DNA of 49,230 bases, taken from the NCBI GenBank assembly GCA_018221125.1, contig JAAOYC010000036.1, positions 1 through 49,230 on the forward strand. Direction: 5' to 3'. Origin of the DNA: Candidatus Woesearchaeota archaeon (GTDB taxonomy: Archaea > Nanobdellota > Nanobdellia > Woesearchaeales > WJKL01). The position numbers were made by a program, and so were the translations under genes. Below, one piece after another: positions 2,121 through 49,230 of this stretch (the first letter of the stretch is position 1; the number at the start of each line of letters is the position of its first letter). The notes under the pieces were generated by a model. The model did no database searches. It was not told the DNA's origin and saw nothing but the letters and a program-made list of their open reading frames with translations.

Positions 2121-2144
2121 AAAATCAGAATTCTATTCTCTATT

Positions 2145-2239: not shown

Positions 2240-2308
2240 TATTTTCTAAAATTCACGAAGTAAAGTTAGCTTTGCTAACATACTTTGTAAATTCTCTCTA
2301 ACTCTCGA

Positions 2309-9910: not shown

Positions 9911-9937
9911 ACCTTCGTGAATTTAACTAAATACTAA

Positions 9938-10018
9938 GTTTTTCGATATCTTTATACAGCGTAAGCAGAGCTTACTGGCATAAAGATTTCTTAAACTTCG
10001 TTTTTCGATATCTTTATA
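9938..10018 (+). repeat. 19-nt direct repeat GTTTTTCGATATCTTTATA (9938-9956 and 10000-10018)
   Basis: Exact duplication 62 bp apart; the second copy supplies the TATA for the gene at 10047; hairpin GTAAGC-aga-GCTTAC at 9961-9975 lies between them. Confidence 0.6.
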
Positions 10019-17235: not shown

Positions 17236-19122
<1,887 letters not shown>

Positions 19123-28347: not shown

Positions 28348-28353
28348 TTTTTA

Positions 28354-29202: not shown

Positions 29203-30212
29203 TTTATCAGGCCTCCTAAATTGTCATATTTCTCAAATTTTGATAATATGCTTTTTACTTTTGCAACCCTTTGTTCTAAACTTCCTTTTAAAACTACGAA
29301 TGGAACTTTATGCTCTATCAAGTAAGCAATTGTTCTTTTTTGCATAACTTCCCTGTTAGCATCTCCTGATCTGTCCCAAGTGTCATCATAAGGAATATCA
29401 TTATCGCAGAGGAAAAATAGGTCATATCTTTGGATGCATTTTTCAGCAATCGCCTCTAATTCAGGGGCTGCTTTTCCATGATAGTATAATGAGAAGAGAT
29501 AAGTTGTTATTGCATTTGTATCTGTAAAAAGATACTTGTTTGCATTTAACAAAAGTTTATCTTCTCTTTCTATGTGGCCTTTTGCAATCTCAGTAAGCTG
29601 ATCTAAGGTCAATCGTCTTTCAATTTGATGTGTTGCCCAGTATTCTCTTCCATATTCTGGCATAAACACTGTGTTGAATTCTTTTGCCATCCTTTCTGTG
29701 ATAGTTGATTTGCCGCTTGAAGGAGCTCCCATGAAAACTATATTTGCAATCAGGTCTTTGTATACAACTGGATGCAGAAATTCCCTGTATTTGAATGGGT
29801 CTTGTCTTATCTTTGTTGCTGAGACAGGAACTTTTTGCCTGGCCATGTCAATTGTCCTGTTTTCTGCGCCCAGTGCAATTCCCATATGTTCTCCATAAGG
29901 CTCGCTTGAGTAAAATCTTGTTATATCTTTTCCTTCAAGCAGGTCAAGGATGTAATTCTCTTGTTTTTTCATTATCTCCATTGTATATCCTACTTCTTTA
30001 GGACCATCCCATGCTTCAATTATATTAACAGGAGGGTAGATTGTCTTTATCCAGCTGCATCTGACAGTTAATGGAACACTGATTATTTCAGGACAATCAT
30101 AGACAATAGCAGTTAACTCATCAACTTCTTTTAATGCAGTATCAACTACGTATTCATGTCCTTTATGAAAAGGTGCAAACTTTCCTAAAAACAACCCTTT
30201 AGCTTTGGGCAT
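29199..30212 (-). CDS. nadR: NadR-type bifunctional NMN adenylyltransferase / ribosylnicotinamide kinase (no HTH)
   Basis: GLFLGKFAPFHKGHEYVV (HxGH) plus P-loop FMGAPSSGKST; GGAGG Shine-Dalgarno precedes the ATG at 30212 (the ORF track starts at 30251). Confidence 0.8.
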   Translation of the reverse strand: MPKAKGLFLGKFAPFHKGHEYVVDTALKEVDELTAIVYDCPEIISVPLTVRCSWIKTIYPPVNIIEAWDGPKEVGYTMEIMKKQENYILDLLEGKDITRFYSSEPYGEHMGIALGAENRTIDMARQKVPVSATKIRQDPFKYREFLHPVVYKDLIANIVFMGAPSSGKSTITERMAKEFNTVFMPEYGREYWATHQIERRLTLDQLTEIAKGHIEREDKLLLNANKYLFTDTNAITTYLFSLYYHGKAAPELEAIAEKCIQRYDLFFLCDNDIPYDDTWDRSGDANREVMQKRTIAYLIEHKVPFVVLKGSLEQRVAKVKSILSKFEKYDNLGGLIK

Positions 30213-30909
30213 TTTCCAATTTCCTCCAGTTATAGTAACCATATATTGCATTTACCAGATATGCTGACCACATGACCAACATGCTGATGTCATTGCCTCC
30301 TTTCAATAGGATGTAAAACCACATGTAAACAGATACAACATCAATTGCTATCCACAATAGCCATTGCTCTGTAACTCTCTTGACCATAAGTATCATGGCA
30401 ATTACAGAGAGTACTGTTGATGCTGAGTCAACAAAAGGAAGTGTTCCTCTCAAGTACAGCAAAAACAACCCGTATCCAAAGATTCCTGCAACAGAGATGA
30501 CTGCCCAGTATATTCTTTGTTTTACATTTAGGTGCTTGATTACAACATCATCTTTTCCTTTGATTGCATTGGAATGTTTTTTCCAGTAATACAATCCAAC
30601 AAACTGCATTGGAAGGAAATATAATGCATTTAGCATAACTTCTCCAAAATACCTGCTTTGAAATGCAATGTATGCATACAATACAACATTTACAACACCA
30701 AAGTAATAGTTGCTGATCTTTCCTTTTGCAACCAACACAACACACAGCATACCTGTCAAGGATGTGACTAATCCTATGATGCTGTCTTTCCATGCAAAAA
30801 ACAGATAAATGTTGATTAGAGTGAAAGATATTAGCCAGATTCTTTCGAATAATGTCCAGTCTTTTGCATAATTCCTTACACTGTCTCCCCATCTTTTTGT
30901 TGGAATCAT
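30199..30909 (-). CDS. pnuC: nicotinamide riboside transporter PnuC
   Basis: 236 aa, about 7 hydrophobic helices, Trp-rich (WLISF, YYWKKH, WLLWIAIDVVSVYMW), adjacent to nadR as is classic. Confidence 0.8.
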   Translation of the reverse strand: MIPTKRWGDSVRNYAKDWTLFERIWLISFTLINIYLFFAWKDSIIGLVTSLTGMLCVVLVAKGKISNYYFGVVNVVLYAYIAFQSRYFGEVMLNALYFLPMQFVGLYYWKKHSNAIKGKDDVVIKHLNVKQRIYWAVISVAGIFGYGLFLLYLRGTLPFVDSASTVLSVIAMILMVKRVTEQWLLWIAIDVVSVYMWFYILLKGGNDISMLVMWSAYLVNAIYGYYNWRKLENAQS

Positions 30910-31580
30910 TTTAGGATATCCTCCAAAGTTGTGAAGATAGCTCCTGCTTGTTTCATCTCTTTTATTGCTAGTTCTGCATCTTCTGGATCTAGATTAACTG
31001 CTGCAATTGCATCTTCTAGAACATAACATTGGATTCCTCTTTCCTGCATTCCAACAACAGCTGCCTTAACACAATAATCTGTTGCAACTCCATAGACAAT
31101 TGCTTCTTTTACTCCCATTTGTTTTAACAAAGGTTCAACTGCAGGATTTGTAAAGACATCATAATGTTGTTTTTCAAATACAATATCTCCTTCACCATCT
31201 GCAATCTCTGCTAACTCTGCTGTTGTATATCTTCTGAAGTTATCTCCTTCAGCTATTTTATTTTCAACAACATATGCTTCATTATTTCTTATTTCTGGGA
31301 TAAAATCAATTCCAAATGTTCCATCTGCATTTTTTTGTCCATATTGCTTATCCATGCAGTGTTCTGGAAATGGTCCTCCATTTGCTAAGAGTTCTGTATC
31401 ATCTTTGAAATGTCTATCTCTACTTGCAGCTTTTCTGATGCCTGCTTTTTCTACTTTTTCTTCAGTTTTGTCAATTTCTGCTTTAATTTCTTCTGCACCA
31501 GGTACATACAGTCTTCCATCTTTTTCCCTCATAAAGTCCCCTTCTGGGTCAACTCTATAAGCAATAAGTTCGTTTGTCAT
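30906..31580 (-). CDS. pncA: nicotinamidase / isochorismatase-family cysteine hydrolase
   Basis: VYGVATDYCVKAAVVG catalytic-Cys motif; NAD-operon context. Confidence 0.8.
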   Translation of the reverse strand: MTNELIAYRVDPEGDFMREKDGRLYVPGAEEIKAEIDKTEEKVEKAGIRKAASRDRHFKDDTELLANGGPFPEHCMDKQYGQKNADGTFGIDFIPEIRNNEAYVVENKIAEGDNFRRYTTAELAEIADGEGDIVFEKQHYDVFTNPAVEPLLKQMGVKEAIVYGVATDYCVKAAVVGMQERGIQCYVLEDAIAAVNLDPEDAELAIKEMKQAGAIFTTLEDILK

Positions 31581-31581
31581 T

Positions 31582-32583
31582 TTATTTACCTCCTAAGTAT
31601 TTTTCAAATCTTTGTTCAGCTCTTGCTTGATCCCATTTGCCATCCCACAATGGATTCCAGCTGACATAATCATAAAGATCATAGACCTTGCTGAAATCCT
31701 GCCCCATATCTTTATAATCAATGATTATGTTGGTTGCAATATAGACTCCACTCTCTTTGAGCTGCCTTGCGATTGCGATTGTTTCTAATGTATCTCCAAC
31801 ATTCCTATTCATGTTTCTCAATACTTCTGGAGTATCGCTCTGTATTGGTGAATGATAAACTTTGATCAGTCCTTGTTCAGCAGTTTCTATCAATTCATCT
31901 TTACATCTTACTGTGATAGACGGCTCAACATTCCTTATAGAGAATGGTTTGCCATGTTTTTGTGCAATTGCACACCATTCCTTAACTTGTTTTTCTGTTG
32001 GGCTGTCTGCAATTAACAGGATATCATCAAAAGCCAGGAATTCTTCTTCTAACCTTGCTGCATCATAAGCTTCAAAATCTCCTCTTGTAACTCTAATTGT
32101 ACAATATGTGCATTTGTTTGGACAACCTTTTCCAATTCTAAGAGGGTACATATTTCTAAACAAATGACCTTGTTCAAATTCATCTCCTCCTTCAGCAAAA
32201 TCATCAATCCAAAATGGTTTTTCAAAATGAACTAATGTCAAATCTTCAAGGAATTGATAATTTTCTCTTGGAGTATCTAATCTTTGCACTAATTCTGGCA
32301 TTGGAATGTCTTCTCTTTTTGAAAGACAACCACTTATGAAATATTCCTTACCCGGATTTTCTTGCTGAAGCGCCTCCATAGTCTTAAAATCATTAAGGAT
32401 AGCAAGATCTGTAACCTGGCATGAAAGTACAACGAGATTATCTGCCTCTACAGGATCAAGGGTTGTCTTTTCTTTGTGCTTGTTTGCCCAACTCAATGCA
32501 TCTGCCCAGACAGACATACAGGCTGCGCTTGTCATATACACTTTTCCTTCCAGTGAATCTGCATCTTTCATTTTAACCTCCAT
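31582..32583 (-). CDS. radical SAM protein, methylthiotransferase-like but without a TRAM domain
   Basis: GKGCPNKCTYCTIRVTRG (CxxxCxxC); three spaced N-terminal Cys (AACMS, LSCQV, SGCL) like the UPF0004 domain; start overlaps the pncB stop (TAATG). Confidence 0.75.
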   Translation of the reverse strand: MEVKMKDADSLEGKVYMTSAACMSVWADALSWANKHKEKTTLDPVEADNLVVLSCQVTDLAILNDFKTMEALQQENPGKEYFISGCLSKREDIPMPELVQRLDTPRENYQFLEDLTLVHFEKPFWIDDFAEGGDEFEQGHLFRNMYPLRIGKGCPNKCTYCTIRVTRGDFEAYDAARLEEEFLAFDDILLIADSPTEKQVKEWCAIAQKHGKPFSIRNVEPSITVRCKDELIETAEQGLIKVYHSPIQSDTPEVLRNMNRNVGDTLETIAIARQLKESGVYIATNIIIDYKDMGQDFSKVYDLYDYVSWNPLWDGKWDQARAEQRFEKYLGGK

Positions 32584-33716
32584 TATAGTATTCTTTCCAA
32601 GTCTTGATTAACTCTTGGCGGTCTTCCAACTTTGTGGATTATGTTTTTCATCTGATAGCTATTTGGCATATTGAAATCAACAGTGTTAGCAGTTTCTCCA
32701 ACTCCGATGATGTCTGCGGTTGCAGTTCTTACATTGTCAAGGAATCCTGCTCCGATGCTGTCATAAAGCTGTTTTCTGAAATATTCCTCTCCTTTATTGA
32801 ATGCCTTGACTTTCTCTGGATTGCTGAAGCCTGAGCTTAGGACAATGCCAACTCTTTCTTCTGGGTTAAATGCGTCCATTGCTGTTCTTAAGGCATTTAC
32901 AGCATAGACATTAACTCCTGTTCCTTTCCAGTATTTTCTCTTTCCTTCAATGCCTCCTTCTGCAATGTTCTCTCCGCAGGTGTCAACTCTGACTGCGTTT
33001 AGTGCTGGCAGTTCTTTCATCAATCTTAGAGTATCTGTGATTTCTTTGTTTGCATAATCAACTAATGCTATTCTTGGGATTTTTTTGTCCATGTATTTGT
33101 CAAAAGCTTTTGTTGATTCTAAAACTCCGTTTTCTATTCCATGATAATATGCATAGATGTTTTCTAATGCATGAGGAATTGTTCCTAGTCCTTTTTTTCC
33201 AAATGGTTCTGCACCATTATCAGTTGAGCAATCTTTTGCTCCTCCTTCAAATGCTGCTTTTGTGATTGCCTGATCCATATTATAATGCCAGTGCCTTGCT
33301 CCGAAATAGAAAATTGGGCGATCTCCTGCTAATTCAACTACTTGCTCAACTTGTCTTTGGATTGCTTCAAGATCTGGCTCTTTCTTGTCATTCTCTCTTG
33401 TTATTGCAGCTGCAATCACACCTAAGTAAACTGTTTCTAATTCCATGATTTCCTGAACAGGGGCAATTATGTTCATCAAAGTATCTTTTGGCTGATAGAT
33501 TTCTCCATCTTTTTTTGCATAGATTCTGCCTCCTGCTTTGACAATATCAGAATTTTGAGTTATGATTTCAACTGCTTCATCTATTCCAGCGACTTTGCCA
33601 GGCCCTTGCCTGACAAAGACCTGCATGTTAACCCATGGATTCAGTTTGTCTGCTTTCAGTATTTCATTTGCCCTTAGGAAATATTTGTCTGCATATTTTT
33701 TCATTTTGTTTTTCAT
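32583..33716 (-). CDS. pncB: nicotinate phosphoribosyltransferase family (archaeal short type)
   Basis: KYADKYFLRANEIL...VFVRQGPGKVAGIDEAVEII and VRVDTCGE; start moved to the ATG at 33716 (AAAGGTGA Shine-Dalgarno) because the track's first 27 codons cover the operators. Confidence 0.8.
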   Translation of the reverse strand: MKNKMKKYADKYFLRANEILKADKLNPWVNMQVFVRQGPGKVAGIDEAVEIITQNSDIVKAGGRIYAKKDGEIYQPKDTLMNIIAPVQEIMELETVYLGVIAAAITRENDKKEPDLEAIQRQVEQVVELAGDRPIFYFGARHWHYNMDQAITKAAFEGGAKDCSTDNGAEPFGKKGLGTIPHALENIYAYYHGIENGVLESTKAFDKYMDKKIPRIALVDYANKEITDTLRLMKELPALNAVRVDTCGENIAEGGIEGKRKYWKGTGVNVYAVNALRTAMDAFNPEERVGIVLSSGFSNPEKVKAFNKGEEYFRKQLYDSIGAGFLDNVRTATADIIGVGETANTVDFNMPNSYQMKNIIHKVGRPPRVNQDLERIL

Positions 33717-33729
33717 CTGTTTCACCTTT

Positions 33730-33744
33730 GTGTATTTTATACAC
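33730..33744. promoter_or_regulatory. candidate NrtR operator GTGTAT-TTT-ATACAC
   Basis: 15-bp palindrome just upstream of the pncB Shine-Dalgarno; core TGTA-N5-TACA. Confidence 0.55.
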
Positions 33745-33782
33745 TTACTATAATCAAAGGAAATAAAACATTTATCTCCTTC

Positions 33783-33797
33783 GTGTATTGTATACAC
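33783..33797. promoter_or_regulatory. candidate NrtR operator GTGTAT-TGT-ATACAC
   Basis: 15-bp palindrome immediately downstream of the operon TATA; core TGTA-N5-TACA. Confidence 0.55.
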
Positions 33798-38889: not shown

Positions 38890-39855
38890 ATGGGTTTTTT
38901 CTGTAGTTGTTTTGAGTACTATAAAGCTTACTCGAGGTTATGCAAAATGGTTGTTGAAACAATAAAAAAATGTCCGGAATGCGGAGATGCTAAATTCTTT
39001 GCAAATAAGAAGAAAGGAGAAGTTATCTGCAAAAGCTGCGGTTTTGTTGTAGAAGATTTTCTAGTTGATTTTGGAAAAGAGAGGATGATAGGTGAAGAAG
39101 ATTTTGCTAAGAAGAGCAGAACAGGAGCTCCTTATGATCCGAGAGTTGCAAATGGATTGATGACAGAAGTTGGAAATTATGCTGATCTGAAGAATCTTCC
39201 TAAGAAAACAAGGATGCTTATGAACAGGATAAGGCAGAAAAACAGATGGACAAGCTCTGCATTAGAGCATAATCTGAATACTAATCTGTCTAATCTGAAA
39301 TTAATTGCTTCTCAGCTTAAATTGCCTGACAGCATTGAGAAAGAAGCAGCTAGAATATACAGAGAATGCGCTGAAAAAGGCTTAACAAGAGCAAGAGCTA
39401 ATGATAGCATTATAGCAGCTGTTGTTTTCTTGTCTTCAAAGCTTCATGCAATGCCAAAAACTTTGAATGAAGTAGCTAATGCTTCTAAATTGAACAAGTT
39501 TGACATTGCAAGAACCTATAAGATGGTTATAAGGAGATTAGGGATTAAAGTAATGCAAAGTAATCCAATTGATTTCATAGCAAGATTTGCCTCTGAACTA
39601 AACTTAGGAGCAAAAACACAGACTCAGGCAGTTAAATTGCTTGAAAAGATACAGAAAATAGGAATTGATTCTGGTAAAAGCCCAACATCTTTGGCAGCTA
39701 CAACTTTGTATATCTCTGCTTTGATGAACAAAGTAAAGGTTACACAGAAATCAATAGCTGAAACAGCTGGAATTACTGAAACAACTTTAAGACAGAGAAC
39801 AAAGGAAATGCTTAATAAGTTAGGAATCAACAAGAAAGATATAAAGAAGAAATAA
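38890..39855 (+). CDS. tfb: transcription initiation factor IIB (TFB)
   Basis: Zinc ribbon CPECGDAKF...CKSCGFV, B-linker, two cyclin-fold repeats; alternative start MVVETIKKCPECG at 38947. Confidence 0.9.
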   Translation: MGFFCSCFEYYKAYSRLCKMVVETIKKCPECGDAKFFANKKKGEVICKSCGFVVEDFLVDFGKERMIGEEDFAKKSRTGAPYDPRVANGLMTEVGNYADLKNLPKKTRMLMNRIRQKNRWTSSALEHNLNTNLSNLKLIASQLKLPDSIEKEAARIYRECAEKGLTRARANDSIIAAVVFLSSKLHAMPKTLNEVANASKLNKFDIARTYKMVIRRLGIKVMQSNPIDFIARFASELNLGAKTQTQAVKLLEKIQKIGIDSGKSPTSLAATTLYISALMNKVKVTQKSIAETAGITETTLRQRTKEMLNKLGINKKDIKKK

Positions 39856-39869
39856 AAGGTGAATAGAAA

Positions 39870-40310
39870 ATGATGCATTTAGACGATCACGAAAAATTAA
39901 GAACACAGGATGTTCCTTATACTGAATTAGTTATGGATTATGTAAGGAGCAAAGGACTGGCTGTAAGATTAGGCGGTTCAGCAGCAGAAGGTAATATTGA
40001 TTATAATGATGTTGATATCTTAGCAATAGGATTAAATAAAGACGTCTTAAAGGCAGTAAGAGGGCTTGAAAGATTAGTAAAAACTAAGCCTTTGCCAAAA
40101 AAAACTAATGATGGAGTGTCAATAAGAGTAGATCGTGTTGGCCAAAATGAGAAATACTTAAATGATAATGTAGACCATAGGTACAATATTAAGATTGGAA
40201 GTACTGATATTGACTTATGTCTAAAATGTGTTACACTAGATAATGCACTTGAGGTTTATGCAAGTAAGATGTTAGAACAAAAAATGACAAGGGCGGGTGG
40301 AAATGAGTGA
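39870..40310 (+). CDS. minimal nucleotidyltransferase-fold protein (operon gene A)
   Basis: VRLGGSAAEGNIDYNDVDILAIG (GS...DxD) and a later TDIDLCL acidic position. Confidence 0.6.
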   Translation: MMHLDDHEKLRTQDVPYTELVMDYVRSKGLAVRLGGSAAEGNIDYNDVDILAIGLNKDVLKAVRGLERLVKTKPLPKKTNDGVSIRVDRVGQNEKYLNDNVDHRYNIKIGSTDIDLCLKCVTLDNALEVYASKMLEQKMTRAGGNE

Positions 40311-40632
40311 AGATACTAAAAGCATGCTGGAACATTATTTTGTCAAATATGTAGTTGGATTGAAAACAATAGAAGAGATGTCTGGTCCTGATGTATGGAA
40401 TTCTGAAATTTCTAGAAATCAGGTAAAAAAAAGTAAGAAAGAATTTACAGGAGCAGTGAAAGCTATATTAAAAGGATTAGAAGAGGGTGTTGTTGAAGTT
40501 GGAGGCGGAGTTGAAAAGCTGCAGCTTGAAGATGTATTAAGATTTTCTGAAGATAATGATTGGTTTAAAACAGAAACACTAACAGGATTGTATAAAGTAT
40601 ATAATTGTGCTACTGGAGAGAATTATAAATAA
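40303..40632 (+). CDS. hypothetical protein (operon gene B)
   Basis: ATG at 40303 overlaps the end of gene A by 8 nt. Confidence 0.55.
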   Translation: MSEDTKSMLEHYFVKYVVGLKTIEEMSGPDVWNSEISRNQVKKSKKEFTGAVKAILKGLEEGVVEVGGGVEKLQLEDVLRFSEDNDWFKTETLTGLYKVYNCATGENYK

Positions 40633-40644
40633 AGGTGATAGAAA

Positions 40645-41160
40645 ATGACAGATGAAAAATCAAAACAAGAACCATCAGGAGAGAGGCTTCCAGAAAGAGG
40701 TCTGGCTTTATGCATGCATGATGGAGAAATATATGAAACAGGAAGAAGTGTAGAACCAGGAAGAGTTCTGGCTTTATGTTTTCATGAAGGGGTATGGTGT
40801 GGAAAAGAATATAAGCTAAATGAAGATTTCTATGCTGTAGCTGAAAAACCAAGAGATGATCTTAAAGACTTAGTTAATAAAAAAGAAGAACCAACTCCAA
40901 GACAAAAACAAATTGAAATGATAGTAACAAATGGGTTAGGTTATGATTCCAGAACAACATATCAAGAAAAAAATCCAGATTTGTTTTTTAGCCCTGGTTT
41001 GTTAGGTGATTCTGATATCAAGAATACTCATGAAGGATTACACGCCCATCTGGCAGAAATGGAACATAGAGTTGATCCTAATAAAGTTTCAGAAAAAGTT
41101 GTTGATTTATACAGGGAATTGGCAGTTATGACCTATTTTTATGGAGAAGGACTCTTATAA
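40645..41160 (+). CDS. hypothetical protein carrying two ALCxHxGE-type units (operon gene C)
   Basis: GLALCMHDGEIYETG and VLALCFHEGVWCG resemble the repeat core of the five paralogs at 44258-48463. Confidence 0.6.
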   Translation: MTDEKSKQEPSGERLPERGLALCMHDGEIYETGRSVEPGRVLALCFHEGVWCGKEYKLNEDFYAVAEKPRDDLKDLVNKKEEPTPRQKQIEMIVTNGLGYDSRTTYQEKNPDLFFSPGLLGDSDIKNTHEGLHAHLAEMEHRVDPNKVSEKVVDLYRELAVMTYFYGEGLL

Positions 41161-41177
41161 ATAAAGGTGAATGAAGA

Positions 41178-41597
41178 ATGACAGAATATGAGGGATTTGA
41201 TGTAGGAGATATAACAAAATTAAAAGAACAAGATAGACTTTATGTTGATGATTTACTTTGCGCTTTAATTGGTGCAAGTTTACATGTAGGGCTTGTTGAA
41301 CAAACAGCTAAAAGAGAACCTCGTGATTATGTTAGCATATTAGCAGTAGGGTATGGAAAAGCTATTATGGAAGCATTATATGGTGCACTTAGACTTGATG
41401 AGACTGCTGGTAAAGTGGCTTTTGATGGATCAGAATATAATATAGAAGAAATTAACCCAGTATCTGAAGATTTAGCAATGGATTTAAATTTAGGATATAA
41501 AATCCAAATTAATGACACTAAAATAAAGCTATATATAAAAGAAGTTACTTCGGATGAATTATATAAAACCTATTTAGAGAGTATTTTAGACGAATAA
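41178..41597 (+). CDS. degenerate (predicted inactive) paralog of the gene A nucleotidyltransferase (operon gene D)
   Basis: ALIGASLHVG...RDYVSILAVGYGKAIMEA aligns with RLGGSAAEG...NDVDILAIGLNKDVLKA; the acidic residues are replaced (DVD to YVS, DID to KIK). Confidence 0.55.
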   Translation: MTEYEGFDVGDITKLKEQDRLYVDDLLCALIGASLHVGLVEQTAKREPRDYVSILAVGYGKAIMEALYGALRLDETAGKVAFDGSEYNIEEINPVSEDLAMDLNLGYKIQINDTKIKLYIKEVTSDELYKTYLESILDE

Positions 41598-41610
41598 AGG
41601 TGAATAAAAA

Positions 41611-41760
41611 ATGGTAGAAGATAAAATAAAACAAGAACCTGTGCCTAAAGATCCAAGGCTAGAAGATATTATGAAAAGAATATTAATGAGACCTGATAAA
41701 GGCCTGTTAACTGATTCAGAAAGGCCTTATGGACAGCATAAAAAAGAGTATAATAAATAG
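41611..41760 (+). CDS. possible 49-aa protein (operon gene E), absent from the ORF track
   Basis: AAGGTGAATAAAAAATG junction identical in style to its neighbours; MVEDKIKQEPVPKDPRLEDIMKRILMRPDKGLLTDSERPYGQHKKEYNK. Confidence 0.5.
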   Translation: MVEDKIKQEPVPKDPRLEDIMKRILMRPDKGLLTDSERPYGQHKKEYNK

Positions 41761-41774
41761 TAGTGAACAATAAA

Positions 41775-42035
41775 ATGGAAATAAAAAGAACAGAAATAAC
41801 AACAGAAGGATTAAGCCCTGTTGAAAAGGCTGCAACTAGTATGGATAGTATTCAATACGACTTTACTCCAGCTCCAGAAAGTTCAGCTGACCAAGCGTTC
41901 CTAAAAACACTTGATGCATTGTTATTAAATATACCTTATAGCGTTGCAAGGTCTGAGAAAACTACTGTTCAGAATAATCAAGGGGGATATAAACATTATA
42001 TTGTAACAATCAAATTTACTGGAGAAGGTGAATAA
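41775..42035 (+). CDS. hypothetical protein (operon gene F)
   Basis: First ATG of the 41763 ORF; ends ...TGEGE with its stop inside GGTGAATAA. Confidence 0.55.
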   Translation: MEIKRTEITTEGLSPVEKAATSMDSIQYDFTPAPESSADQAFLKTLDALLLNIPYSVARSEKTTVQNNQGGYKHYIVTIKFTGEGE

Positions 42036-42039
42036 GAAA

Positions 42040-42396
42040 ATGAATGCAAAAGAAATGTATGATGCAGCAACTGGATTTGTTAGAGATACAGTAGCTGAAG
42101 CTGCTCTTAGAATTATGTTATTCAGACCTGGTGGATTAGATGTTGCAGTTGTTGATGCACAATTACCATTAAGACCAGAAACTGAAAAACATCCATTGCA
42201 TGATATAGACTATCCTGATTCTTTTCTAGGAGATTTGGTAATGATTGGTGATTTTGATGATAAAATTGACTATTATGATTCATACTCTTCAGACCACATA
42301 AACTTTCTTCCTCTTCCAGGATTTGAAAATTATACCTTTAATAAGGAAAGATTCTCAAGCCTATTAGATGGTTATTTAGGAGAAGAAGGTGAATAA
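42040..42396 (+). CDS. hypothetical protein (operon gene G)
   Basis: ATG 8 nt after GGTGA; ends ...GEEGE with its stop inside GGTGAATAA. Confidence 0.55.
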   Translation: MNAKEMYDAATGFVRDTVAEAALRIMLFRPGGLDVAVVDAQLPLRPETEKHPLHDIDYPDSFLGDLVMIGDFDDKIDYYDSYSSDHINFLPLPGFENYTFNKERFSSLLDGYLGEEGE

Positions 42397-42401
42397 AGAA
42401 A

Positions 42402-43172
42402 ATGACAGAACAGATTCAAGAACAATATATAGAAAGATTAAGAGAAAGGACAGTTCTTGGAAATGTACTACGAGAAGTTGCTGAGTATATGGGCAGAAAA
42501 CCTCGTGAAGGAAAGATTTCTAGTCCTGCTAATGGGTATGATTCTGTTAGTCCAAGTGAGTTTTTTATGGGATATCCTAAAGCAAACCCTAGATTGTATA
42601 TAGTAAGGCAAGAACACCTTCCATTTGACCCAAATATTAAAGCAATATCTTCTACTGGAAGCAGACTGCTTCTAGAGACTTCTAAAGTAGATCATGAAAA
42701 ATGGGGAGATTGTCTAGAAGAATCAGTTATGCAGGCATATATCAAAGAAGGACAGAAAACAGTCCAACTTGATGAAACTCCTATAATCAAGACAAGAACA
42801 CAAAATGTAGCAGAAGAGGGAATAAATATGCGTACTCTTTTAACAATCCTCCCAAGATATAGAACTGCTGATTTTGAAGAAGCAATAGGTGCAATTGATG
42901 AGATGTATGCAAAAGGATGTTTTTTAGAAGACTTGACACAGAAAGAAGGATGGGGTGGCAGCCAAACTCCAGATGGAGAGAGAGTTCAAGAACTAAAAAT
43001 GGAATTACGACAAGTACAGACAATGGCACTATCAAGAGAACAATTACCTATTCTAACTCTAAAACAGATACCAACTACTTATATGATTCGTAAAAGAATT
43101 TTTAATGCTAAAATCTTACGAATGAATACACCAGAATTAGAAGCTTACTTAAAAAAAATTATAGGTGAATAA
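42402..43172 (+). CDS. hypothetical protein (operon gene H, 256 aa)
   Basis: Largest gene of the operon; no family recognised; ends ...KIIGE with its stop inside GGTGAATAA. Confidence 0.6.
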   Translation: MTEQIQEQYIERLRERTVLGNVLREVAEYMGRKPREGKISSPANGYDSVSPSEFFMGYPKANPRLYIVRQEHLPFDPNIKAISSTGSRLLLETSKVDHEKWGDCLEESVMQAYIKEGQKTVQLDETPIIKTRTQNVAEEGINMRTLLTILPRYRTADFEEAIGAIDEMYAKGCFLEDLTQKEGWGGSQTPDGERVQELKMELRQVQTMALSREQLPILTLKQIPTTYMIRKRIFNAKILRMNTPELEAYLKKIIGE

Positions 43173-43176
43173 AAAA

Positions 43177-43482
43177 ATGTCAGAAGAAATTCGTAATAAA
43201 GTAAAAGAACTGAACAATGCTGAATTAAATGCATTTCTTTATGAGTTGAGCTGTGAAAGCAGAGATGTTGAAGACAAAGAAACAATAGAAATCATGAAAG
43301 ACCTTGGACGGATTGCAAGAGATATCATGATTAGTAAAGGTCTTGTTAATCATCTTAGTAATGAAACTATGCAGCATGCATCAACTGATAGAACTGTCCC
43401 TAGTTATCTGGGCATGGAAGACTGGGATGAGTTAAAAATCCTCTATAAGATAATTGATGATCCTTATTCTCCGTCAGAATAG
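43177..43482 (+). CDS. hypothetical protein (operon gene I)
   Basis: ATG 8 nt after GGTGA; followed by an oligo-T tract at 43486-43500. Confidence 0.55.
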   Translation: MSEEIRNKVKELNNAELNAFLYELSCESRDVEDKETIEIMKDLGRIARDIMISKGLVNHLSNETMQHASTDRTVPSYLGMEDWDELKILYKIIDDPYSPSE

Positions 43483-43595
43483 AAATCTTTTTTTTCTTCA
43501 GCAACTGGATTTCTTCAAATATTAATTTTATAAAAACAAAAACTTTATAAATAAGAGTGACTTATACTCACATAAAATCACTTGAGGTGAGAATA

Positions 43596-43853
43596 ATGAC
43601 TATAAATCTAAGAGCTCAGATATCTGATTATGCCAATAGGGTATTAGGAGTAATAAAAGAAAAATACGGGCTAAAAGATAAATCAGAAGCAATAGATAAA
43701 TTTACTGAAATGTTTGGAGAAGAATTTGTAGAAAGTGAGGTAAAGGAAGATATTGTCAAGGATATGATCAAAGAATGTGAAGGGTGGGAGAGAAAACATA
43801 AATTTAAAAGAAAAATGTCTATAAAAGAATTAGATAAGCTATGCGGTATGTAA
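43596..43853 (+). CDS. putative antitoxin of a RelE-type module (paralog of 36297-36539)
   Basis: GAGGTGA Shine-Dalgarno 5 nt before the ATG at 43596; MTINLRAQISDYANRVLGVIKEKYGLKDKSEAIDKF. Confidence 0.6.
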   Translation: MTINLRAQISDYANRVLGVIKEKYGLKDKSEAIDKFTEMFGEEFVESEVKEDIVKDMIKECEGWERKHKFKRKMSIKELDKLCGM

Positions 43854-43854
43854 G

Positions 43855-44133
43855 ATGTTTGAGTTTGATATATCCTGCGAAATTAAGATATTAATAAGAA
43901 AACTTTTAAAAAAAGATAAAAAAAGAGTTGAAATTTTAAATAAAAAAATAAAAGAAATAATCAATAATAATGCAGAAACAATTGACAGATATCATAACTG
44001 CAGTTATGATTTAAAAGAATATAAACATGTTCATATTGATAAAAGTTTTGTGTTATTATTCAAAGTATATAAGGGGAAAAATATGATTTATTTTTGGAAA
44101 TTAAAACATCACGACAATCTCTTTAAGAAATGA
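43855..44133 (+). CDS. relE: RelE/ParE-superfamily toxin (paralog of 36541-36804)
   Basis: YDLKEYKHVHIDKSFVLLFKVYKGKNMIYFWKLKHHDNLF; 1-nt gap from the antitoxin gene. Confidence 0.65.
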   Translation: MFEFDISCEIKILIRKLLKKDKKRVEILNKKIKEIINNNAETIDRYHNCSYDLKEYKHVHIDKSFVLLFKVYKGKNMIYFWKLKHHDNLFKK

Positions 44134-44257: not shown

Positions 44258-45142
44258 TTATTTTTTTGGAATGTTATAGTCATCATCCTCTCCTGTAAAC
44301 ATACCATCATTTGGGTTAATCAATTGTGTTTGTTGTGATCTTTCTTCTAATATTTTTTTAACTAGTTCTGGAGGGATTGAGCACATTGCCCCTATATCTT
44401 TTGAAGGGATTATAGGAACATCACTATGAGTAGTAAATAATCCATATTTCCCACTATCATATAATACTTCATTGTGAGAGCATAAAGCAAGAACATTGTC
44501 AGGTCTTTCTGTTATTTCTGATTCTGTGTTTTCAGGACCAAACATAGAGGGACGGAAGCTTACTTTGCAGACTTTTCTACCTGGTGCATAGTATAAGTCT
44601 CCATCGTGAGAACATAAAGAGTAGATAACTTCATCTAATTTTCTTTCTTCTTTATTTGTAAGTGTGTGATATACTGTTCTCCCTGCTGCATCTAATAAGT
44701 TTCCGTCATGGGAGCATAAAGCAAGAACTATGTCTTGTCTTTCTGCTATTTTTTCATCTGTTGATATTTTATATATCCCTTTTAAAGGTGCAGAATATAG
44801 TTCTCCATTGTGAGAGCATAAAGTATTATAGTCAATTAAAAAATACTTTGTTATTGTTGCATCTGATAATGTGTTACGTGCAGAGTATCTCCCTCCATCA
44901 TATAATTCTCCTTTATGTGGGCATAAAGCTTTAACTATTCCTGGTCTTTTTTTTATCAAGAGATCTTCATTTCCATTTACGTATAAGAATATTTTATTTT
45001 CAACAGCATAGACTAAACCATTCTCTCCTCCTTGTGTAAGTCTTTTTTCCAAAGGCTCTACTGGCTTTTCTTTTCTAGCCTTTAATCTAGCTTTATATCT
45101 GTTTACCAGTTCTTCATTTGTTTTTCCTTTGTTTATTGTCAT
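44258..45142 (-). CDS. repeat-protein paralog 5 (conserved basic N-terminus plus ~36-aa LCSHxGxLY repeats)
   Basis: MTINKGKTNEELVNRYKARLKARKEKPVE; units ALCPHKGELYDGG, TLCSHNGELYSAP, ALCSHDGNLLDAA, SLCSHDGDLYYAP, ALCSHNEVLYDSG; C-terminal AMCSIPPELVKKIL. Confidence 0.75.
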   Translation of the reverse strand: MTINKGKTNEELVNRYKARLKARKEKPVEPLEKRLTQGGENGLVYAVENKIFLYVNGNEDLLIKKRPGIVKALCPHKGELYDGGRYSARNTLSDATITKYFLIDYNTLCSHNGELYSAPLKGIYKISTDEKIAERQDIVLALCSHDGNLLDAAGRTVYHTLTNKEERKLDEVIYSLCSHDGDLYYAPGRKVCKVSFRPSMFGPENTESEITERPDNVLALCSHNEVLYDSGKYGLFTTHSDVPIIPSKDIGAMCSIPPELVKKILEERSQQTQLINPNDGMFTGEDDDYNIPKK

Positions 45143-45945
45143 TTTAAGACTCCTTTATTTTTTAAGATTCTTTCAACTAGGTCTGGAGGGACTGAGCACA
45201 TTGCTGCTGTATGTCCATCTGTCGGGGCAAGAAAAGGCATGTCATGTATAGTAGCGTAGATGCCGCCATATCTTCCTCCATCTAATAAATTGGTATTGTG
45301 AGAACATAAAGCTTCAACAAGGTCTGATCTTGATGCTACTCGATTTACCCCTTTTTTTGTGAAACAGAAAACGGAAAGTTTGTGTGCGTAATATAAGTTT
45401 CCGTCATGGGAGCATAAAGCATTGACTTGTGTTGCAATTGATATTTCTTCATTAGCTTGGGTTTTGAATATTCCAAGCCCTGCATCGTATAATTCTCCAT
45501 TATGGGCGCATAAAGCTTTAATTTCGCCGCGTCTTGCAGCTATTTTAATATTTGAGAAGATTTCTTGTATATATCTTGCATTTGCATCGTATAATATTTC
45601 ATTATGGGAGCATAAAGCGTTAACAGTTCTTTCTCTTGTTTTTACAATTCTGTCAGATGCTTCACTTACAGTACTTATACTATTTCCTGATGCTGCATAT
45701 AATTCTCCATTATGCACACACAAAGCATTAATAGTATCTATCCTAGATGTTAGAAAGATGCTATCTTTGAAATCTTGAGTTAAATATATTTTGTTGTTTA
45801 AAGCATAAACCAAACCATCCTTCGATGTTTTTTGTTCTACTGGTTCTTCTACTGGTTCTTCTACTGGCTTTTCTTTTCTAGCTTTTAATCTAGCTTTATA
45901 TCTGTTTACTAATTCTTCATTTGTTTTTCCTTTGTTGATTTTCAT
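45139..45945 (-). CDS. repeat-protein paralog 4
   Basis: Start at the ATG at 45945 (MKINKGKTNEELVNRYKARLKARKEKPVEEPVEEPVE), overlapping the upstream stop as ATGA; five LC[SVA]H units; AMCSVPPDLVERIL. Confidence 0.75.
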   Translation of the reverse strand: MKINKGKTNEELVNRYKARLKARKEKPVEEPVEEPVEQKTSKDGLVYALNNKIYLTQDFKDSIFLTSRIDTINALCVHNGELYAASGNSISTVSEASDRIVKTRERTVNALCSHNEILYDANARYIQEIFSNIKIAARRGEIKALCAHNGELYDAGLGIFKTQANEEISIATQVNALCSHDGNLYYAHKLSVFCFTKKGVNRVASRSDLVEALCSHNTNLLDGGRYGGIYATIHDMPFLAPTDGHTAAMCSVPPDLVERILKNKGVLK

Positions 45946-46760
45946 TTTTTTAATATTCTTTTGACCATTTCTGGCGGGACTGAGCACATTGTTGTTACCT
46001 TTTTTACATCTGGGATTATTACTTTTTTATCGAAGGTATCATATATGCCATCATAACTTCCTGCGTCAAGTAATCTTCCGTTATGAGAACATAGTGCAAA
46101 AATACCTTTCTCACTAATTCCTTTCATAATTGATGATTCATGGTATACTGAACGAGATTCTGTGTAATATAATTCATTTTTATGGAAACAGAAATCCTTG
46201 ATATCAAAATCTACAAGTAATCTTCTTTCGTTAGTTAATGTTTTAATTATAGTATTATCTATTGCAGCATATAACTCTCCTTTATGAGAACGTAGACGAT
46301 AAATTATACCATCTGGTCTTGCTAATTCTTCGTTTGTCTCTGTATTATATATGATAGTAAAAGGTTTTGGTTCAAGAGGCAATTCAGCAAACATTGCATC
46401 AACTAGTTTTCCGTTATGGGAACACATTGCTATGATAGATTTATCCCTTTCTCTGACTATTTCATTTGTGAGTGTGTTGCTTATCTTGCCTTTTGTGCTA
46501 TGTATGTGATATAATTCCCCATCATGATAACACAACTGATGACATGATTCACCTGTGTTTATTACATAGACAGGATTTTGTCTTGATTTTGTAGATAAGA
46601 ATACCTGGTTTAAAATTGCATAAACCAAACCGTTTTCTTCTTCTTCCAAAGGTTCTTCCAAAGGTTCTTCTACAGGTTCTGGTTTTTCTTTTCTAGCCTT
46701 TTTTCTAGCTAAATACTGTTTTACTAGTTCTTCATTTGTTTTTCCTTTGTTTATTGTCAT
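45942..46760 (-). CDS. repeat-protein paralog 3
   Basis: MTINKGKTNEELVKQYLARKKARKEKPEPVEEPLEEPLEEE; more diverged repeats (QLCYHDGELYH, AMCSHNGKLVD, RLRSHKGELYA, DFCFHKNELYY, ALCSHNGRLLD); TMCSVPPEMVKRIL. Confidence 0.75.
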   Translation of the reverse strand: MTINKGKTNEELVKQYLARKKARKEKPEPVEEPLEEPLEEEENGLVYAILNQVFLSTKSRQNPVYVINTGESCHQLCYHDGELYHIHSTKGKISNTLTNEIVRERDKSIIAMCSHNGKLVDAMFAELPLEPKPFTIIYNTETNEELARPDGIIYRLRSHKGELYAAIDNTIIKTLTNERRLLVDFDIKDFCFHKNELYYTESRSVYHESSIMKGISEKGIFALCSHNGRLLDAGSYDGIYDTFDKKVIIPDVKKVTTMCSVPPEMVKRILKK

Positions 46761-46763
46761 TTT

Positions 46764-47597
46764 TTACTTGTGTCTTCTTAAAGGCATGGTCATTGTGTCT
46801 CTAAGATAACCTTTTATTTTCCTTACAATATCTGGTCCAACTGAACACATTGCTGTTATAGCTCCTGTAGAAGGACTTATAACTCTGTTGTCTAGAGTGT
46901 CGTATATGCCTTCATACGCTCCAGCATCTAGTAATCTTCCGTTGTGAGAGCATAAAGTGTAAACCCTCTCATCTCTTTCTACCATAGTTTCATCTTTTAA
47001 TGAGCAGATTATCTGACGCTCTGCTGCTTCATATAACTCTCCGTTGTGGGAGCATAAAGAATAAATAATGGCTTGTCTTCTTCTAAAGAGGTCACTTTCA
47101 ATTTCTAATGTCTTACGAATATTTCCTCCTTCTGTACTATACAGTTCTCCGTTGTGGGAGCACAAAGCAGTGATATCACCCACAGGCCATCTGTCTGCTA
47201 CTTTTATGTTTATTAGTGTTTCATATATTTTGGTTCCTGATGCATCGTACAATTTGCCATCATGAGAACATAAAGCCTCAACATCTTTTTTTCTTATTTT
47301 TGTTATTCCATCAATAAATTTTAATGTTTTACAAATAGTTTTTCCATATGCATCATATAAGTCTCCGTCATGTACGCATAAATCATTAACTGTATGGTCT
47401 CTTGCTGCTATCCAGGTGTTATTTTCAAAATCTTGGGTAAGGTATATCTGCTTATCAAAAGCAATAACTAATCCACTTTCTCCTTCTTGAACCTTTTGTT
47501 CTAAAGGTTCTTCTACTGGTTTTTCTTTTCTAGCTTTTAATCTAGCATGATACTGCTCTATTATTTCTTCGTTTGTTTTTCCTTTATTGATTTTCAT
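46764..47597 (-). CDS. repeat-protein paralog 2
   Basis: MKINKGKTNEEIIEQYHARLKARKEKPVEEPLE; DLCVHDGDLYDA, ALCSHDGKLYDA, ALCSHNGELYST, SLCSHNGELYEA, TLCSHNGRLLDA; AMCSVGPDIVRKI. Confidence 0.75.
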   Translation of the reverse strand: MKINKGKTNEEIIEQYHARLKARKEKPVEEPLEQKVQEGESGLVIAFDKQIYLTQDFENNTWIAARDHTVNDLCVHDGDLYDAYGKTICKTLKFIDGITKIRKKDVEALCSHDGKLYDASGTKIYETLINIKVADRWPVGDITALCSHNGELYSTEGGNIRKTLEIESDLFRRRQAIIYSLCSHNGELYEAAERQIICSLKDETMVERDERVYTLCSHNGRLLDAGAYEGIYDTLDNRVISPSTGAITAMCSVGPDIVRKIKGYLRDTMTMPLRRHK

Positions 47598-48463
47598 TTT
47601 GGTTGTATATCTGTCTGGAGTTTATCCATAGTTTTTCTATCTATACTGAGCATTGCAAAGATTTGTGCATTTTTATCCATAAATTTCTTGCCAGATTCTG
47701 CATCGTATATTCCTCCTCCATCGATTGGAGAATAGAGCAGTCTTCCATTATAAGAGCATAAAGCTGAGATTGGGGGTGTTTGGGAAAATTCCACATTCTG
47801 ATGTGTAAGGTATATCCCTTCATAAACTCCTGCATCGTATAATTCTCCATCATGAGAACATAAGTCTCTAACAGCGCCATCTCTTTTTGCGATTATTGTC
47901 TCATAGGGTTGGTAATTATAAACACTGTGTATTCTTCCATTAGATAATGCTTTATGCAATTCTTCATCATAAGAGCATAAAGCAAAAACACCTGTCTCTT
48001 CTGTTGCTATATGTTTGCCTCTTACAATGAATCCTACTATTCCTGTGTTAATTGTGAAAATATCTTTTTCACTGGCTGCATATATCCTGCCGTCATGAGA
48101 GCATAAATCATTGATGTTTGGTTCAAACGTTGCTATTTGTTTATCTTTATTGACATTCCTCACCTTTCCTTTACCATACCCTTCATATAATTCTCCTTTG
48201 TGAATACATAAAGCAGTGATTATCTCGCCTCTGCTACTTATCACTCCTTCAGTACCTTGCGACTCATCATATAACCATATATTTCCTCCAGAGGCATAAA
48301 TCAGACAATCTTCTCCACTTGTATGGAGTCTTTCTTCCAGGGGTTTTTCTACTTTTTCTTCTAAAGGTTCTGGTTCTTCTACTGGCTTTTCTTCTCTAGC
48401 TTTTAATCTAGCTTTATACCTGTTTACTAATTCTTCGTTTGATTTTCCTTTATTGATTTTCAT
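47594..48463 (-). CDS. repeat-protein paralog 1
   Basis: MKINKGKSNEELVNRYKARLKAREEKPVEEPEPLEE; ALCIHKGELYEG, DLCSHDGRIYAA, ALCSYDEELHKA, DLCSHDGELYDA, ALCSYNGRLLYS; start overlaps the VWA stop as ATGA. Confidence 0.75.
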   Translation of the reverse strand: MKINKGKSNEELVNRYKARLKAREEKPVEEPEPLEEKVEKPLEERLHTSGEDCLIYASGGNIWLYDESQGTEGVISSRGEIITALCIHKGELYEGYGKGKVRNVNKDKQIATFEPNINDLCSHDGRIYAASEKDIFTINTGIVGFIVRGKHIATEETGVFALCSYDEELHKALSNGRIHSVYNYQPYETIIAKRDGAVRDLCSHDGELYDAGVYEGIYLTHQNVEFSQTPPISALCSYNGRLLYSPIDGGGIYDAESGKKFMDKNAQIFAMLSIDRKTMDKLQTDIQPK

Positions 48464-49230
48464 TTTTCTCTTAGTAAACTTATTGGCAATTTTTTGTAAT
48501 AACTGGAAACAAAATTAACCATTATCTTGCTTAAGTCATCATCTCCTTTTACATTGAAGACAGGAACTCCTATCTGTTCAAGATAACTAGAATACCCGGT
48601 ATCTGAGCCTATCTGGATGTGGGCATAATCTGATTCTGCAACTTTTTCTTTTAATCTTTGTTTTTGAGCATCACTTAGACTGAATTCTCCATCTGATATT
48701 GACAAAACAAATGAATCTGGAGCTATTTCTTCTTCTAGTGCATCTATATCAAAGCTTGTGTTTCCAGAAGGCATGACTAAGAGAGCTTCTGCAACTTCTC
48801 TTGCATTTCCCTTGATGACCTGCTCTCCTGAAAATCCTAATACGCAGTTGTCAATATAATTGGATACTCCCTGCCCTTCCAGGAAATTGTCTATTCCAAA
48901 ATATCCTTTTAATGCAAAGTGGTATTTGCTTTTGACTCCCCATGGAATAAAGCTTTTGTCTCCTGTATCAATATTCATACCATCTGGATGCCAAGCCATG
49001 CTTCCAGAACGGTCCATTAAAGCAATCTTTAGCTTAGGGAATCTTCTAGGATGTGTCTTGAATGAAACAGGGAATTTTATACTGTGTCTTGATGTTTTTA
49101 TTGCTAATTCTCCATTTTCATTGATTCCTATGCCTCTGTATCTTATTTTTCTTTCATCTTCTTCAACAAATTTTCTTCCATAATGCACTATAGGCATTGA
49201 AGCAGCATCTGTATAATGAGATGTTTCTAC
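48460..49230 (-). CDS. von Willebrand factor A (VWA) domain protein, 5' end probably outside the window
   Basis: MIDAS residues IALMDRSGSM (DxSxS), PSGNTSFD (T), LSISDGEF (D); the frame stays open from the ATG at 49197 up to the window edge (VETSHYTDAAS). Confidence 0.7.
   Translation of the reverse strand, partial: VETSHYTDAASMPIVHYGRKFVEEDERKIRYRGIGINENGELAIKTSRHSIKFPVSFKTHPRRFPKLKIALMDRSGSMAWHPDGMNIDTGDKSFIPWGVKSKYHFALKGYFGIDNFLEGQGVSNYIDNCVLGFSGEQVIKGNAREVAEALLVMPSGNTSFDIDALEEEIAPDSFVLSISDGEFSLSDAQKQRLKEKVAESDYAHIQIGSDTGYSSYLEQIGVPVFNVKGDDDLSKIMVNFVSSYYKKLPISLLREK

Follow-up and report, generated by a model that had tools for sequence, protein, structure and literature searches.

Gene Content and Order of the Locus

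The window analyzed here is a 49,230-bp stretch of DNA that constitutes one entire contig of a Candidatus Woesearchaeota metagenome-assembled genome (MAG) (locus tags GOV06_033xx; G+C ~34%). Six open reading frames (ORFs), all in the same direction on the minus strand, span the region from position 49230 down to 44258; they encode the C-terminal part of a von Willebrand factor A (vWA) protein and five paralogous proteins, each with a conserved N-terminal peptide (hereafter the tag) preceding a predicted β-propeller. The best reading of this region is that it represents the distal part of a DPANN-archaeal operon in which a MoxR-type AAA+ ATPase is paired with a vWA protein (MoxR–vWA operon). 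The six genes are as follows:

48460..49230, minus strand: vWA protein, C-terminal 256 codons (open frame; homologs 39–60% identical; AlphaFold2 (AF2) model and Foldseek matches)
47594..48463, minus strand: paralog 1, 289 aa, with tag, Pro/Glu linker, predicted six-bladed propeller, and C-terminal helix (AF2, Foldseek)
46764..47597, minus strand: paralog 2, 277 aa (ORF, paralog comparison)
45942..46760, minus strand: paralog 3, 272 aa (ORF, paralog comparison)
45139..45945, minus strand: paralog 4, 268 aa counted from the ATG at 45945 (ORF, paralog comparison)
44258..45142, minus strand: paralog 5, 294 aa, closing the operon (ORF, paralog comparison)

Four of the junctions are ATGA stop/start overlaps (48460–63, 47594–97, 45942–45, and 45139–42), and the junction between paralogs 2 and 3 (46766–46758) reads TAA-AAA-ATG, a 3-nt gap with ORF edges at 46760 and 46764; this matches exactly the packing described in an earlier interpretation of the same DNA (the sequence-only reading). 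Such translational coupling suggests that the vWA protein and the five binders would be synthesized in a coordinated manner. The mechanical ORF of paralog 4 begins at a GTG codon (45987), but translation evidently starts from the conserved ATG at 45945. Downstream of paralog 5 the coding strand switches to a convergent RelE/YafQ-like toxin–antitoxin pair, and the operon end is therefore placed at 44258. The pair consists of two small plus-strand genes (43557–44133), the second with weak matches to YafQ/ParE toxins, and is probably a type II toxin–antitoxin module. Genes for reverse transcriptase (RT), MoxR, or ribbon-helix-helix (RHH) proteins were not found in the window (RT by tblastn, best E above 1).

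The vWA Protein

The vWA reading frame has no stop codon from 48463 to 49230. Given that no in-frame stop lies upstream, the gene is cut by the contig end, as had been proposed from the sequence alone. By comparison with full-length relatives, the window protein is short of ~320 N-terminal residues. The retained part encodes a complete metal ion-dependent adhesion site (MIDAS), also recognized in the sequence-only reading, the elements of which are:

49000..49014, minus strand: DxSxS motif (DRSGS), kept in homologs, where R and N occur as x-position variants
48754..48768, minus strand: SGNTS with the MIDAS threonine (T158, invariant in the homolog alignment)
48685..48702, minus strand: SISDGE with the MIDAS aspartate (S177, S179, D180, and G181 invariant in the homolog alignment)

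The MIDAS residues are conserved in 10 homologs (39–60% identity), with DxSxS kept wherever the homologs cover it. The 256-aa fragment has no match in Pfam, NCBIfam, or PDB profile searches, and in BLASTP it shows no significant similarity to the 551-aa vWA protein of a more distant related locus (L002; related loci are designated by L numbers), their kinship being visible only through motifs, profiles, and position. The AF2 model of the fragment consists of alternating β and α elements at modest confidence (pLDDT 62, pTM 0.62), and vWA domains make up most of its top Foldseek matches (ANTXR2, TFIIH p44, Rpn10, and NorD; E 1e-4 to 1e-3, TM-score 0.38–0.47). Among positional homologs, L027 passes PF00092 (24.9 bits vs. 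a cutoff of 23.8) and L002 reaches VWA_2 at 19.2, under the cutoff. Based on the MIDAS motif, the modest structural model, and positional homologs that reach Pfam VWA, we assign the fragment with moderate confidence to the vWA domain, with a predicted Rossmann-like α/β fold.

Full-length vWA relatives are 551–707 aa in length and carry an N-terminal domain with an invariant H..H; those of L072 (576 aa) and L038 (640 aa) align with the window protein from ‘VETS.Y’ onward. This N-terminal domain has an HExxH motif in six of eight sequences and HGxxH in L020 and L027, and an NA.[EQ]D motif is conserved downstream of HExxH. We refer to the domain as ‘zincin-like’ on account of its motif, given that it matches no Pfam family and no PDB chain in profile searches. 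The HGxxH subfamily (L020:3422–5293 and L027:9211–11100) lacks the catalytic Glu yet retains both MoxR and tagged cargo, which suggests that the N-terminal domain can work without catalysis.

The Propeller Paralogs

The five paralogs share 35–42% pairwise identity overall and are built from a unit of ~35 aa, of which the DNA holds 21 copies spaced at 102–108 nt. An AF2 model of paralog 1, computed from a 19-sequence alignment (pLDDT 83, pTM 0.77; 182 of 289 residues at ≥90), comprises a helix at residues 9–25, a disordered stretch at ~29–50, 25 strands arranged as six four-stranded blades, and a C-terminal helix. The ring has a velcro closure: the final strand (AM[CL]S) completes a blade begun by the three strands at the start of the propeller (GLVYA...). 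Foldseek matches to this model are six-bladed propellers of the Kelch, YWTD, and designed SAKe6 types (E ~1e-10, TM-score 0.5–0.64, identity 9–16%). The propeller-like fold suspected from the repeat pattern is thereby borne out, as are the repeat units themselves; the N-terminal unit described as degenerate and the C-terminal AMCS unit are, however, not separate but together form a single velcro blade, for a total of six.

No transmembrane (TM) helix or signal peptide was detected in any of the six window proteins, the maximum 19-residue Kyte–Doolittle mean being 1.08, in line with the earlier reading. The paralogs are thus predicted to be cytoplasmic six-bladed β-propellers.

The view that the repeat falls outside any named family also held: all matches to named repeat families are below the Pfam threshold (best WD40_like, 18.3 bits vs. 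a cutoff of 40), NCBIfam returned none, and these scans gave no family-level placement. In a profile search of 1.84 billion representatives, 1370 proteins were recovered at E<1e-3 and 121 at E<1e-30, mostly of 250–300 aa, with a few giants that have up to 18 copies. Proteins with the core ALCSHxGxLYD and ~35 aa per blade thus constitute a sizeable, distinct, and unnamed family.

The giant members P0036, P0038, and P0041 (4800–5700 aa) have 13–18 stretches matching the propeller family. In nearly every blade, an LCSH-type Cys and a His/Tyr lie two residues apart, and these residues are near-invariant across the family, bacterial members included; the pairs might bind metal or serve as a structural ladder.

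A further eight paralogs with the same tag are encoded in the same MAG on a 16.5-kb contig (GOV06_04130–04170), giving 13 in total.

The Shared N-Terminal Tag

The tags of the five window paralogs, within the window found only on these genes, are located as follows:

48380..48463, minus strand: tag of paralog 1 (MKINKGKSNEELVNRYKARLKAREEKPV; 5' repeat, identity; helix 9–25 in the AF2 model)
47514..47597, minus strand: tag of paralog 2 (5' repeat)
46677..46760, minus strand: tag of paralog 3 (5' repeat)
45862..45945, minus strand: tag of paralog 4 (5' repeat)
45059..45142, minus strand: tag of paralog 5 (5' repeat)

The tag (first 25 residues) is 82% identical among the five paralogs, vs. 36% for residues 51 to the end, and at the DNA level it corresponds to a 98-nt repeat, 80–95% identical, at the 5' end of each paralog gene. 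Across all 13 paralogs of the MAG, mean column entropy is 0.48 bits in the tag vs. 1.98 bits elsewhere, and the eight paralogs encoded off the contig carry the peptide MTINKGKTNEELV..Y.AR.KAR. Diversification among the paralogs was gauged by such entropy contrasts and by codon identity, synonymous sites being saturated at ~36% protein identity; identical residues are encoded by identical codons in 83% of cases in the tag vs. 57% in the bodies. The tag is made of a short basic motif and a predicted amphipathic helix centered on [DE][DE]L...RY..R, and it leads into a disordered acidic Pro/Glu linker. A search of genome contigs with the tag peptide as query yielded no relatives.

The same type of arrangement is found in related operons. 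In every operon with at least two cargo genes (our term for the genes of tagged proteins), the cargo share an N-terminal peptide that differs from operon to operon: mean identity over the first 25 aa is 0.39–0.97 within operons and 0.11–0.35 between operons, with the bodies at 0.24–0.62 within operons. One tag may be carried by unrelated folds, as in L001 (a propeller and two α-repeat proteins), L015 (a propeller and two others), and L068 (two propellers alternating with two other proteins). The core [DE][DE]L...RY..R is common to the tags of the vWA subfamily to which the window belongs (window, NEELVNRYKARLKAR; L072, RDELSEYEKAILRRYLKRK; L009, NKELIEQWAHRYRAR; L076, NSDLYQSWLMRYAERK), so that the window tag motif recurs on the cargo of sister operons. 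The sequence-only reading had described the N-terminus as adaptor-like, and the comparison strongly supports this, inasmuch as the same kind of peptide is found, in operon-specific form, on unrelated folds beside the same vWA family.

Sister Operons in DPANN Archaea

Propeller loci were recovered from metagenomes using a degenerate DNA pattern for ALCSHxGxLYD. In loci with G+C ≤0.42, an HExxH–vWA gene adjoins the propeller in 16 of 27, most of the others being on short or truncated contigs. At G+C ≥0.55, a vWA gene adjoins the propeller in none of 18 loci, and the propeller is single and untagged in those with inspected gene maps.

The closest sister set (L072–L079) comes from eight GTDB species-representative MAGs (Woese-, Pace-, and Nanoarchaeota, with one labelled Methanosarcinales), with vWA proteins 53–60% identical to that of the window. 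In this set the gene order is a small AbrB- or RHH-like gene, MoxR (428–440 aa), one to three cargo genes, vWA (576–605 aa), sometimes an RHH gene, and more cargo; the same order is found in more distant loci (L008–L010, L038/L050, L069–L071, L001–L004, L020/L027, and L044/L053). MoxR (AAA_5/AAA_lid_2) is adjacent to vWA in L001, L008, L027, L038, L053, L069–L074, and L076, and is present in every sister locus with enough sequence. Thus, the MoxR-type partner that was to be sought beyond position 49230 is found consistently among relatives, although the window contig itself ends inside the vWA gene. The sister MoxR proteins have intact Walker A and B motifs (P-loops GGTGEGKT or GDTGTGKT) and belong to a family with ~95 close homologs; those with a source name are all from DPANN or unclassified archaea.

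A conserved 47–52-aa gene, RHH-like by its sequence pattern, precedes MoxR or follows vWA in several loci (L008:7985–8128, L009:3444–3599, L010:1100–1258, L038:4176–4388, and L069–L071 at ~9865–10011; L072:5567–5719), its counterpart in L072 and L073 being a small AbrB/SpoVT-like gene; these small genes probably encode an operon regulator. A phage-type integrase gene (L069:18363–19601) ~3 kb downstream of the MoxR–vWA–cargo operon hints at a mobile locus. A viral origin was considered and rejected, given the lack of relatives in IMG/VR and of any match in PHROGs.

Cargo Diversified by Retroelements

The folds of the cargo vary among related operons, and include propellers, α-repeat proteins, and AvpA-like C-type-lectin (CLec) proteins. 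An RT gene (RVT_1) comes after the cargo array in L071, L075, L076, and L077, and in these loci an intergenic template repeat (TR) is matched by variable repeats (VRs) near the 3' ends of the cargo genes, which is the composition of a diversity-generating retroelement (DGR). These cassettes, each with RT, TR, and VRs, lie within MoxR–vWA operons:

L071:11465–18818
L075:1947–4207
L076:8080–13229
L077:1984–4249

TR/VR mismatches in L075–L077 fall at template adenines in 15/15, 15/15, 11/11, and 12/13 cases. In the L071 alignment, the variable columns are template adenines and the remaining columns are invariant. By these signatures we classify the four as canonical DGRs and their cargo as bona fide targets. 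In L071, five target genes are served by one TR.

The L072 cargo protein (L072:6997–7932) is homologous to AvpA (PDB 5IOO, E 9e-10), including the RFxGV motif, and its tag and linker lie in an N-terminal extension of ~80 residues that the AvpA fold lacks. The cargo slot is thus a hot spot of diversification. For the window itself, a DGR was considered and rejected: tblastn detected no RT, and the only repeats are the paralog units. For this genome, the best reading is that diversity arises by paralogy (13 germline paralogs) rather than by DGR.

Proposed Mechanism

We posit that the window encodes part of a MoxR–vWA operon in which tag-docked propellers serve as a recognition or conflict device, and we judge the probability of this proposal as a whole to be a little better than even. 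The sister operons suggest a single ATPase machine that serves interchangeable, diversified binding proteins. Beyond the contig end, the operon would continue with an RHH/AbrB-like regulator, a MoxR AAA+ gene, possibly more cargo, and the HExxH N-terminal half of the vWA protein. In MoxR–vWA pairs, the vWA MIDAS binds an acidic residue of a client or of an extended peptide, and the AAA+ ring supplies the remodeling force (PMC7159879). A conserved tag that is particular to each operon, independent of fold, and trailed by an acidic disordered linker is the obvious candidate for a MIDAS ligand, and we therefore propose that the tag is a handle by which each propeller would dock in trans on the vWA/MoxR machine. 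Contact would most likely be made by a conserved acidic residue, in the tag or in the linker, that completes the MIDAS metal site in the manner of other vWA–ligand pairs. The MoxR ATPase could then remodel, assemble, or release the docked propeller, and the HExxH domain could process cargo or targets. The propellers would be alternative binding modules, in the same slot that the closest sister operons fill with DGR-hypermutated AvpA-like proteins.

Because equivalent cargo are DGR-hypermutated in sister operons and form a 13-member paralog family in this MAG, we infer that the cargo are ligand-recognition modules under diversifying pressure. Rather than housekeeping, the most likely role of the system is recognition or conflict, directed at viruses, a host, or neighbors. 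The resemblance to vWA-based conflict or sensor systems suggested by the sequence-only reading is reinforced by the hypermutation of equivalent cargo in four sister loci.

Several observations weigh against this proposal. MoxR is visible neither in the window nor among the retrievable sequences of the same MAG; the contig simply stops. Some MoxR–vWA pairs, such as CbbQO and NorQD, serve in housekeeping maturation. In the relatives, the HExxH domain has no counterpart in Pfam or the PDB, and the HGxxH motif of L020 and L027 implies that proteolysis is not universal. Neither PADLOC nor PHROGs profiles significantly matched the six proteins or their relatives, and the six proteins have no classical toxic or effector domain. 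Synonymous differences are fewer in the tag than elsewhere, so gene conversion is a possible source of homogenization and may lie behind part of the tag identity. There are also near-duplicate contigs among the sister loci (L001–4, L027/29, and L038/50), so the counts are not independent and are to be taken as indicative.

Alternative Explanations

The alternative that survives best, which we regard as unlikely, is housekeeping maturation: a MoxR–vWA chaperone would fold, assemble, or metal-load the Cys/His-rich propellers, with the tag as its substrate-recognition signal and the paralogs having ordinary roles. The characterized pairs NorQD, CbbQO, and Mg-chelatase are indeed maturation or remodeling factors, with NorD among the fold matches of the vWA model, and each paralog has four to five C-x-H/Y motifs in which Cys and His are near-invariant across the family. 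However, operons of the same type hold cargo of other folds without C-x-H (AvpA-like CLec and α-repeat proteins), some of them DGR-hypermutated, and in the bacterial propellers of this family the Cys/His motif persists with no tag and with no MoxR or vWA gene nearby.

A variant of the main proposal, and somewhat more doubtful, is that the tag and linker form a propeptide, that is, a leader cut by the HExxH domain of the vWA protein under the control of MoxR. The cut would free or activate the propellers, making the system a regulated cascade of proteolytic maturation. Release by a peptidase has been put forward for VMAP systems (PMC7159879; PMC10907252), and it would accord with the conservation of HExxH and the downstream N-A-x-[EQ]-D in most full-length vWA relatives, and with the disordered linker that follows the tag helix in the AF2 model. 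Against this, the candidate peptidase domain has no Pfam or PDB match, the L020/L027 subfamily still has tagged cargo without the catalytic Glu, and the N-terminal half of the window vWA protein lies outside the contig.

We consider it quite improbable that the tag acts independently of vWA and MoxR, either as a hetero-oligomerization helix that bundles the paralogs or as a basic nucleic-acid-binding arm (RYKARLKARKEK), with the adjacent vWA gene being merely operonic. Residues 9–25 are predicted to form an amphipathic, highly basic helix, and the tag is common to all 13 paralogs, in keeping with such a role. The tags of other operons, however, are neutral or acidic (DPDLAREINEK, MKLP..F.P.K.L) yet equally operon-shared; in addition, tag type follows vWA subfamily, and propellers without a vWA neighbor carry no tag.

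Finally, a DNA-level artefact, in which gene conversion or a constraint on ATGA re-initiation keeps the first ~90 nt alike without any protein function, could account for the high codon identity in the tag and for the 98-nt repeat, but is very hard to sustain given that the tag has synonymous and some non-synonymous differences, that eight paralogs on another contig retain the same peptide, that non-homologous cargo of other genomes, encoded by different DNA, bear a related peptide motif, and that re-initiation needs no 25–30 conserved codons.

Relation to Known Systems

We class the system as a new archaeal MoxR–vWA variant, characterized by an HExxH–vWA fusion and by trans-encoded, tag-addressed, interchangeable binder cargo. 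The closest precedents are the MoxR–vWA ‘ternary’ conflict systems, which include a β-propeller subtype (Kaur, Burroughs, Iyer, and Aravind, 2020; eLife e52696, PMC7159879). As in those systems, a MoxR AAA+ gene is coupled to a MIDAS-bearing vWA gene, the variable modules in the ‘effector position’ are mostly repeat scaffolds (propellers, TPR/HEAT), short adaptor domains link the components, and there is occasional linkage to a DGR; the propeller subtype likewise has no classical toxin. That subtype differs in having the propeller fused to vWA, whereas the window vWA protein ends at 48460, right after the domain, and the six-bladed propellers are separate, tagged, and arrayed. Its third component has a variable N-terminus, TM, TPR, and propeller, whereas the six window proteins have no TM segment, and its P-loop is GXXXTAKS, in contrast to the two P-loop forms of the sister MoxR proteins. 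In further contrast to the systems of Kaur et al. (2020), the hosts here are DPANN archaea, an HExxH domain makes up the N-terminal part of the vWA protein, and no VMAP, iSTAND, or FtsH third component is evident, nor any extra conserved large gene in the sister operons.

Multicellular bacteria have DGR-containing MoxR/vWA loci (Dore et al., 2024; PNAS, PMC10907252) with the same ingredients as L071 and L075–L077; in the bacterial loci, however, vWA and CLec usually form one polypeptide, whereas the DPANN targets are separate proteins with tags, and the window is without a DGR. The DGRs of CPR/DPANN clade 5F have been explicitly described as lacking conflict-system domains (PMC10907252). The L072 cargo is related to the AvpA-type DGR variable proteins of Nanoarchaeota (PDB 5IOO; Handa, 2016, PMC5006420; Paul, 2015, PMC4372165), by homology and by occurrence in the same phyla; in the window, by contrast, the cargo are propellers rather than CLec proteins. 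The function of AvpA is given as unknown in that literature (Handa, 2016, PMC5006420; Paul, 2015, PMC4372165). Term searches of PMC5006420 and PMC4372165 found no ATPase or vWA neighbor and no N-terminal tag (Paul et al., 2017, Nat Microbiol, being outside the search). Literature searches on DUF2201 and on MoxR in DPANN turned up nothing relevant.

The two-gene MoxR/vWA logic is shared with CbbQO and NorQD, and the vWA domain of NorD is among the structural matches; these pairs differ in having single conserved metabolic clients, without a tag, arrays, an HExxH domain, or diversification.

A further parallel is provided by Rea1/Midasin, a MoxR-clade AAA+ motor in which a MIDAS grips the N-terminal module of the propeller proteins Ytm1 and Rsa4 via an acidic residue. 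The likeness is by analogy, with no evidence of homology past the AAA+ and vWA folds: Rea1/Midasin acts in eukaryotic ribosome biogenesis, the gripped module is ubiquitin-like rather than a 25-aa helix, and motor and MIDAS reside in one giant polypeptide.

Other Features of the Contig

Upstream of the toxin–antitoxin pair, the region 38890–43482 (plus strand) contains a TFIIB gene and then eight or nine tightly packed small ORFs, of which those scanned have no Pfam match; the stretch may represent an integrated element or else a cluster specific to the lineage. A packed minus-strand cluster at 25516–33797 encodes an ADP-ribosylglycohydrolase, a NadR-like AAA_28 and cytidylyltransferase protein, a QRPTase N-terminal domain protein, and a radical SAM/UPF0004 enzyme, and looks like an operon related to NAD or ADP-ribose. 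A bacterial-type DNA gyrase B gene lies at 17242–19122 (plus strand). The tRNA gene at 2144–2240 (plus strand) is ~97 nt long, far above the standard length, which suggests an archaeal intron; the ARAGORN anticodon call, Asn (att), is probably distorted by that intron. Both the TFIIB gene and this long tRNA agree with an archaeal source for the contig.

Implications for DPANN Archaea

MoxR–vWA pairs are widespread, and the choice of client is known in few cases; here, the selector appears to be a short, fold-portable peptide that co-varies with the vWA subfamily. The locus also joins the predicted MoxR–vWA conflict systems, described mainly from multicellular bacteria, with the DGR variable proteins of DPANN archaea (AvpA). 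A more tentative extension, which we regard as a possibility rather than as an expectation, is that DPANN archaea have a modular immune-like platform, in which one MoxR–vWA(–HExxH) motor would be served by interchangeable binders, plugged in through a short, co-evolving tag, with a repertoire that is either somatic (DGR) or germline (paralog array), the window representing the germline form. On that view, archaeal DGR variable proteins would for the first time gain a functional context. If DGR targets and propeller arrays are indeed alternative cargo, DPANN symbionts with genomes of ~1 Mb would devote >1% of their genes to cytoplasmic diversified recognition, and the system would bear on how DPANN episymbionts cope with viruses or hosts.

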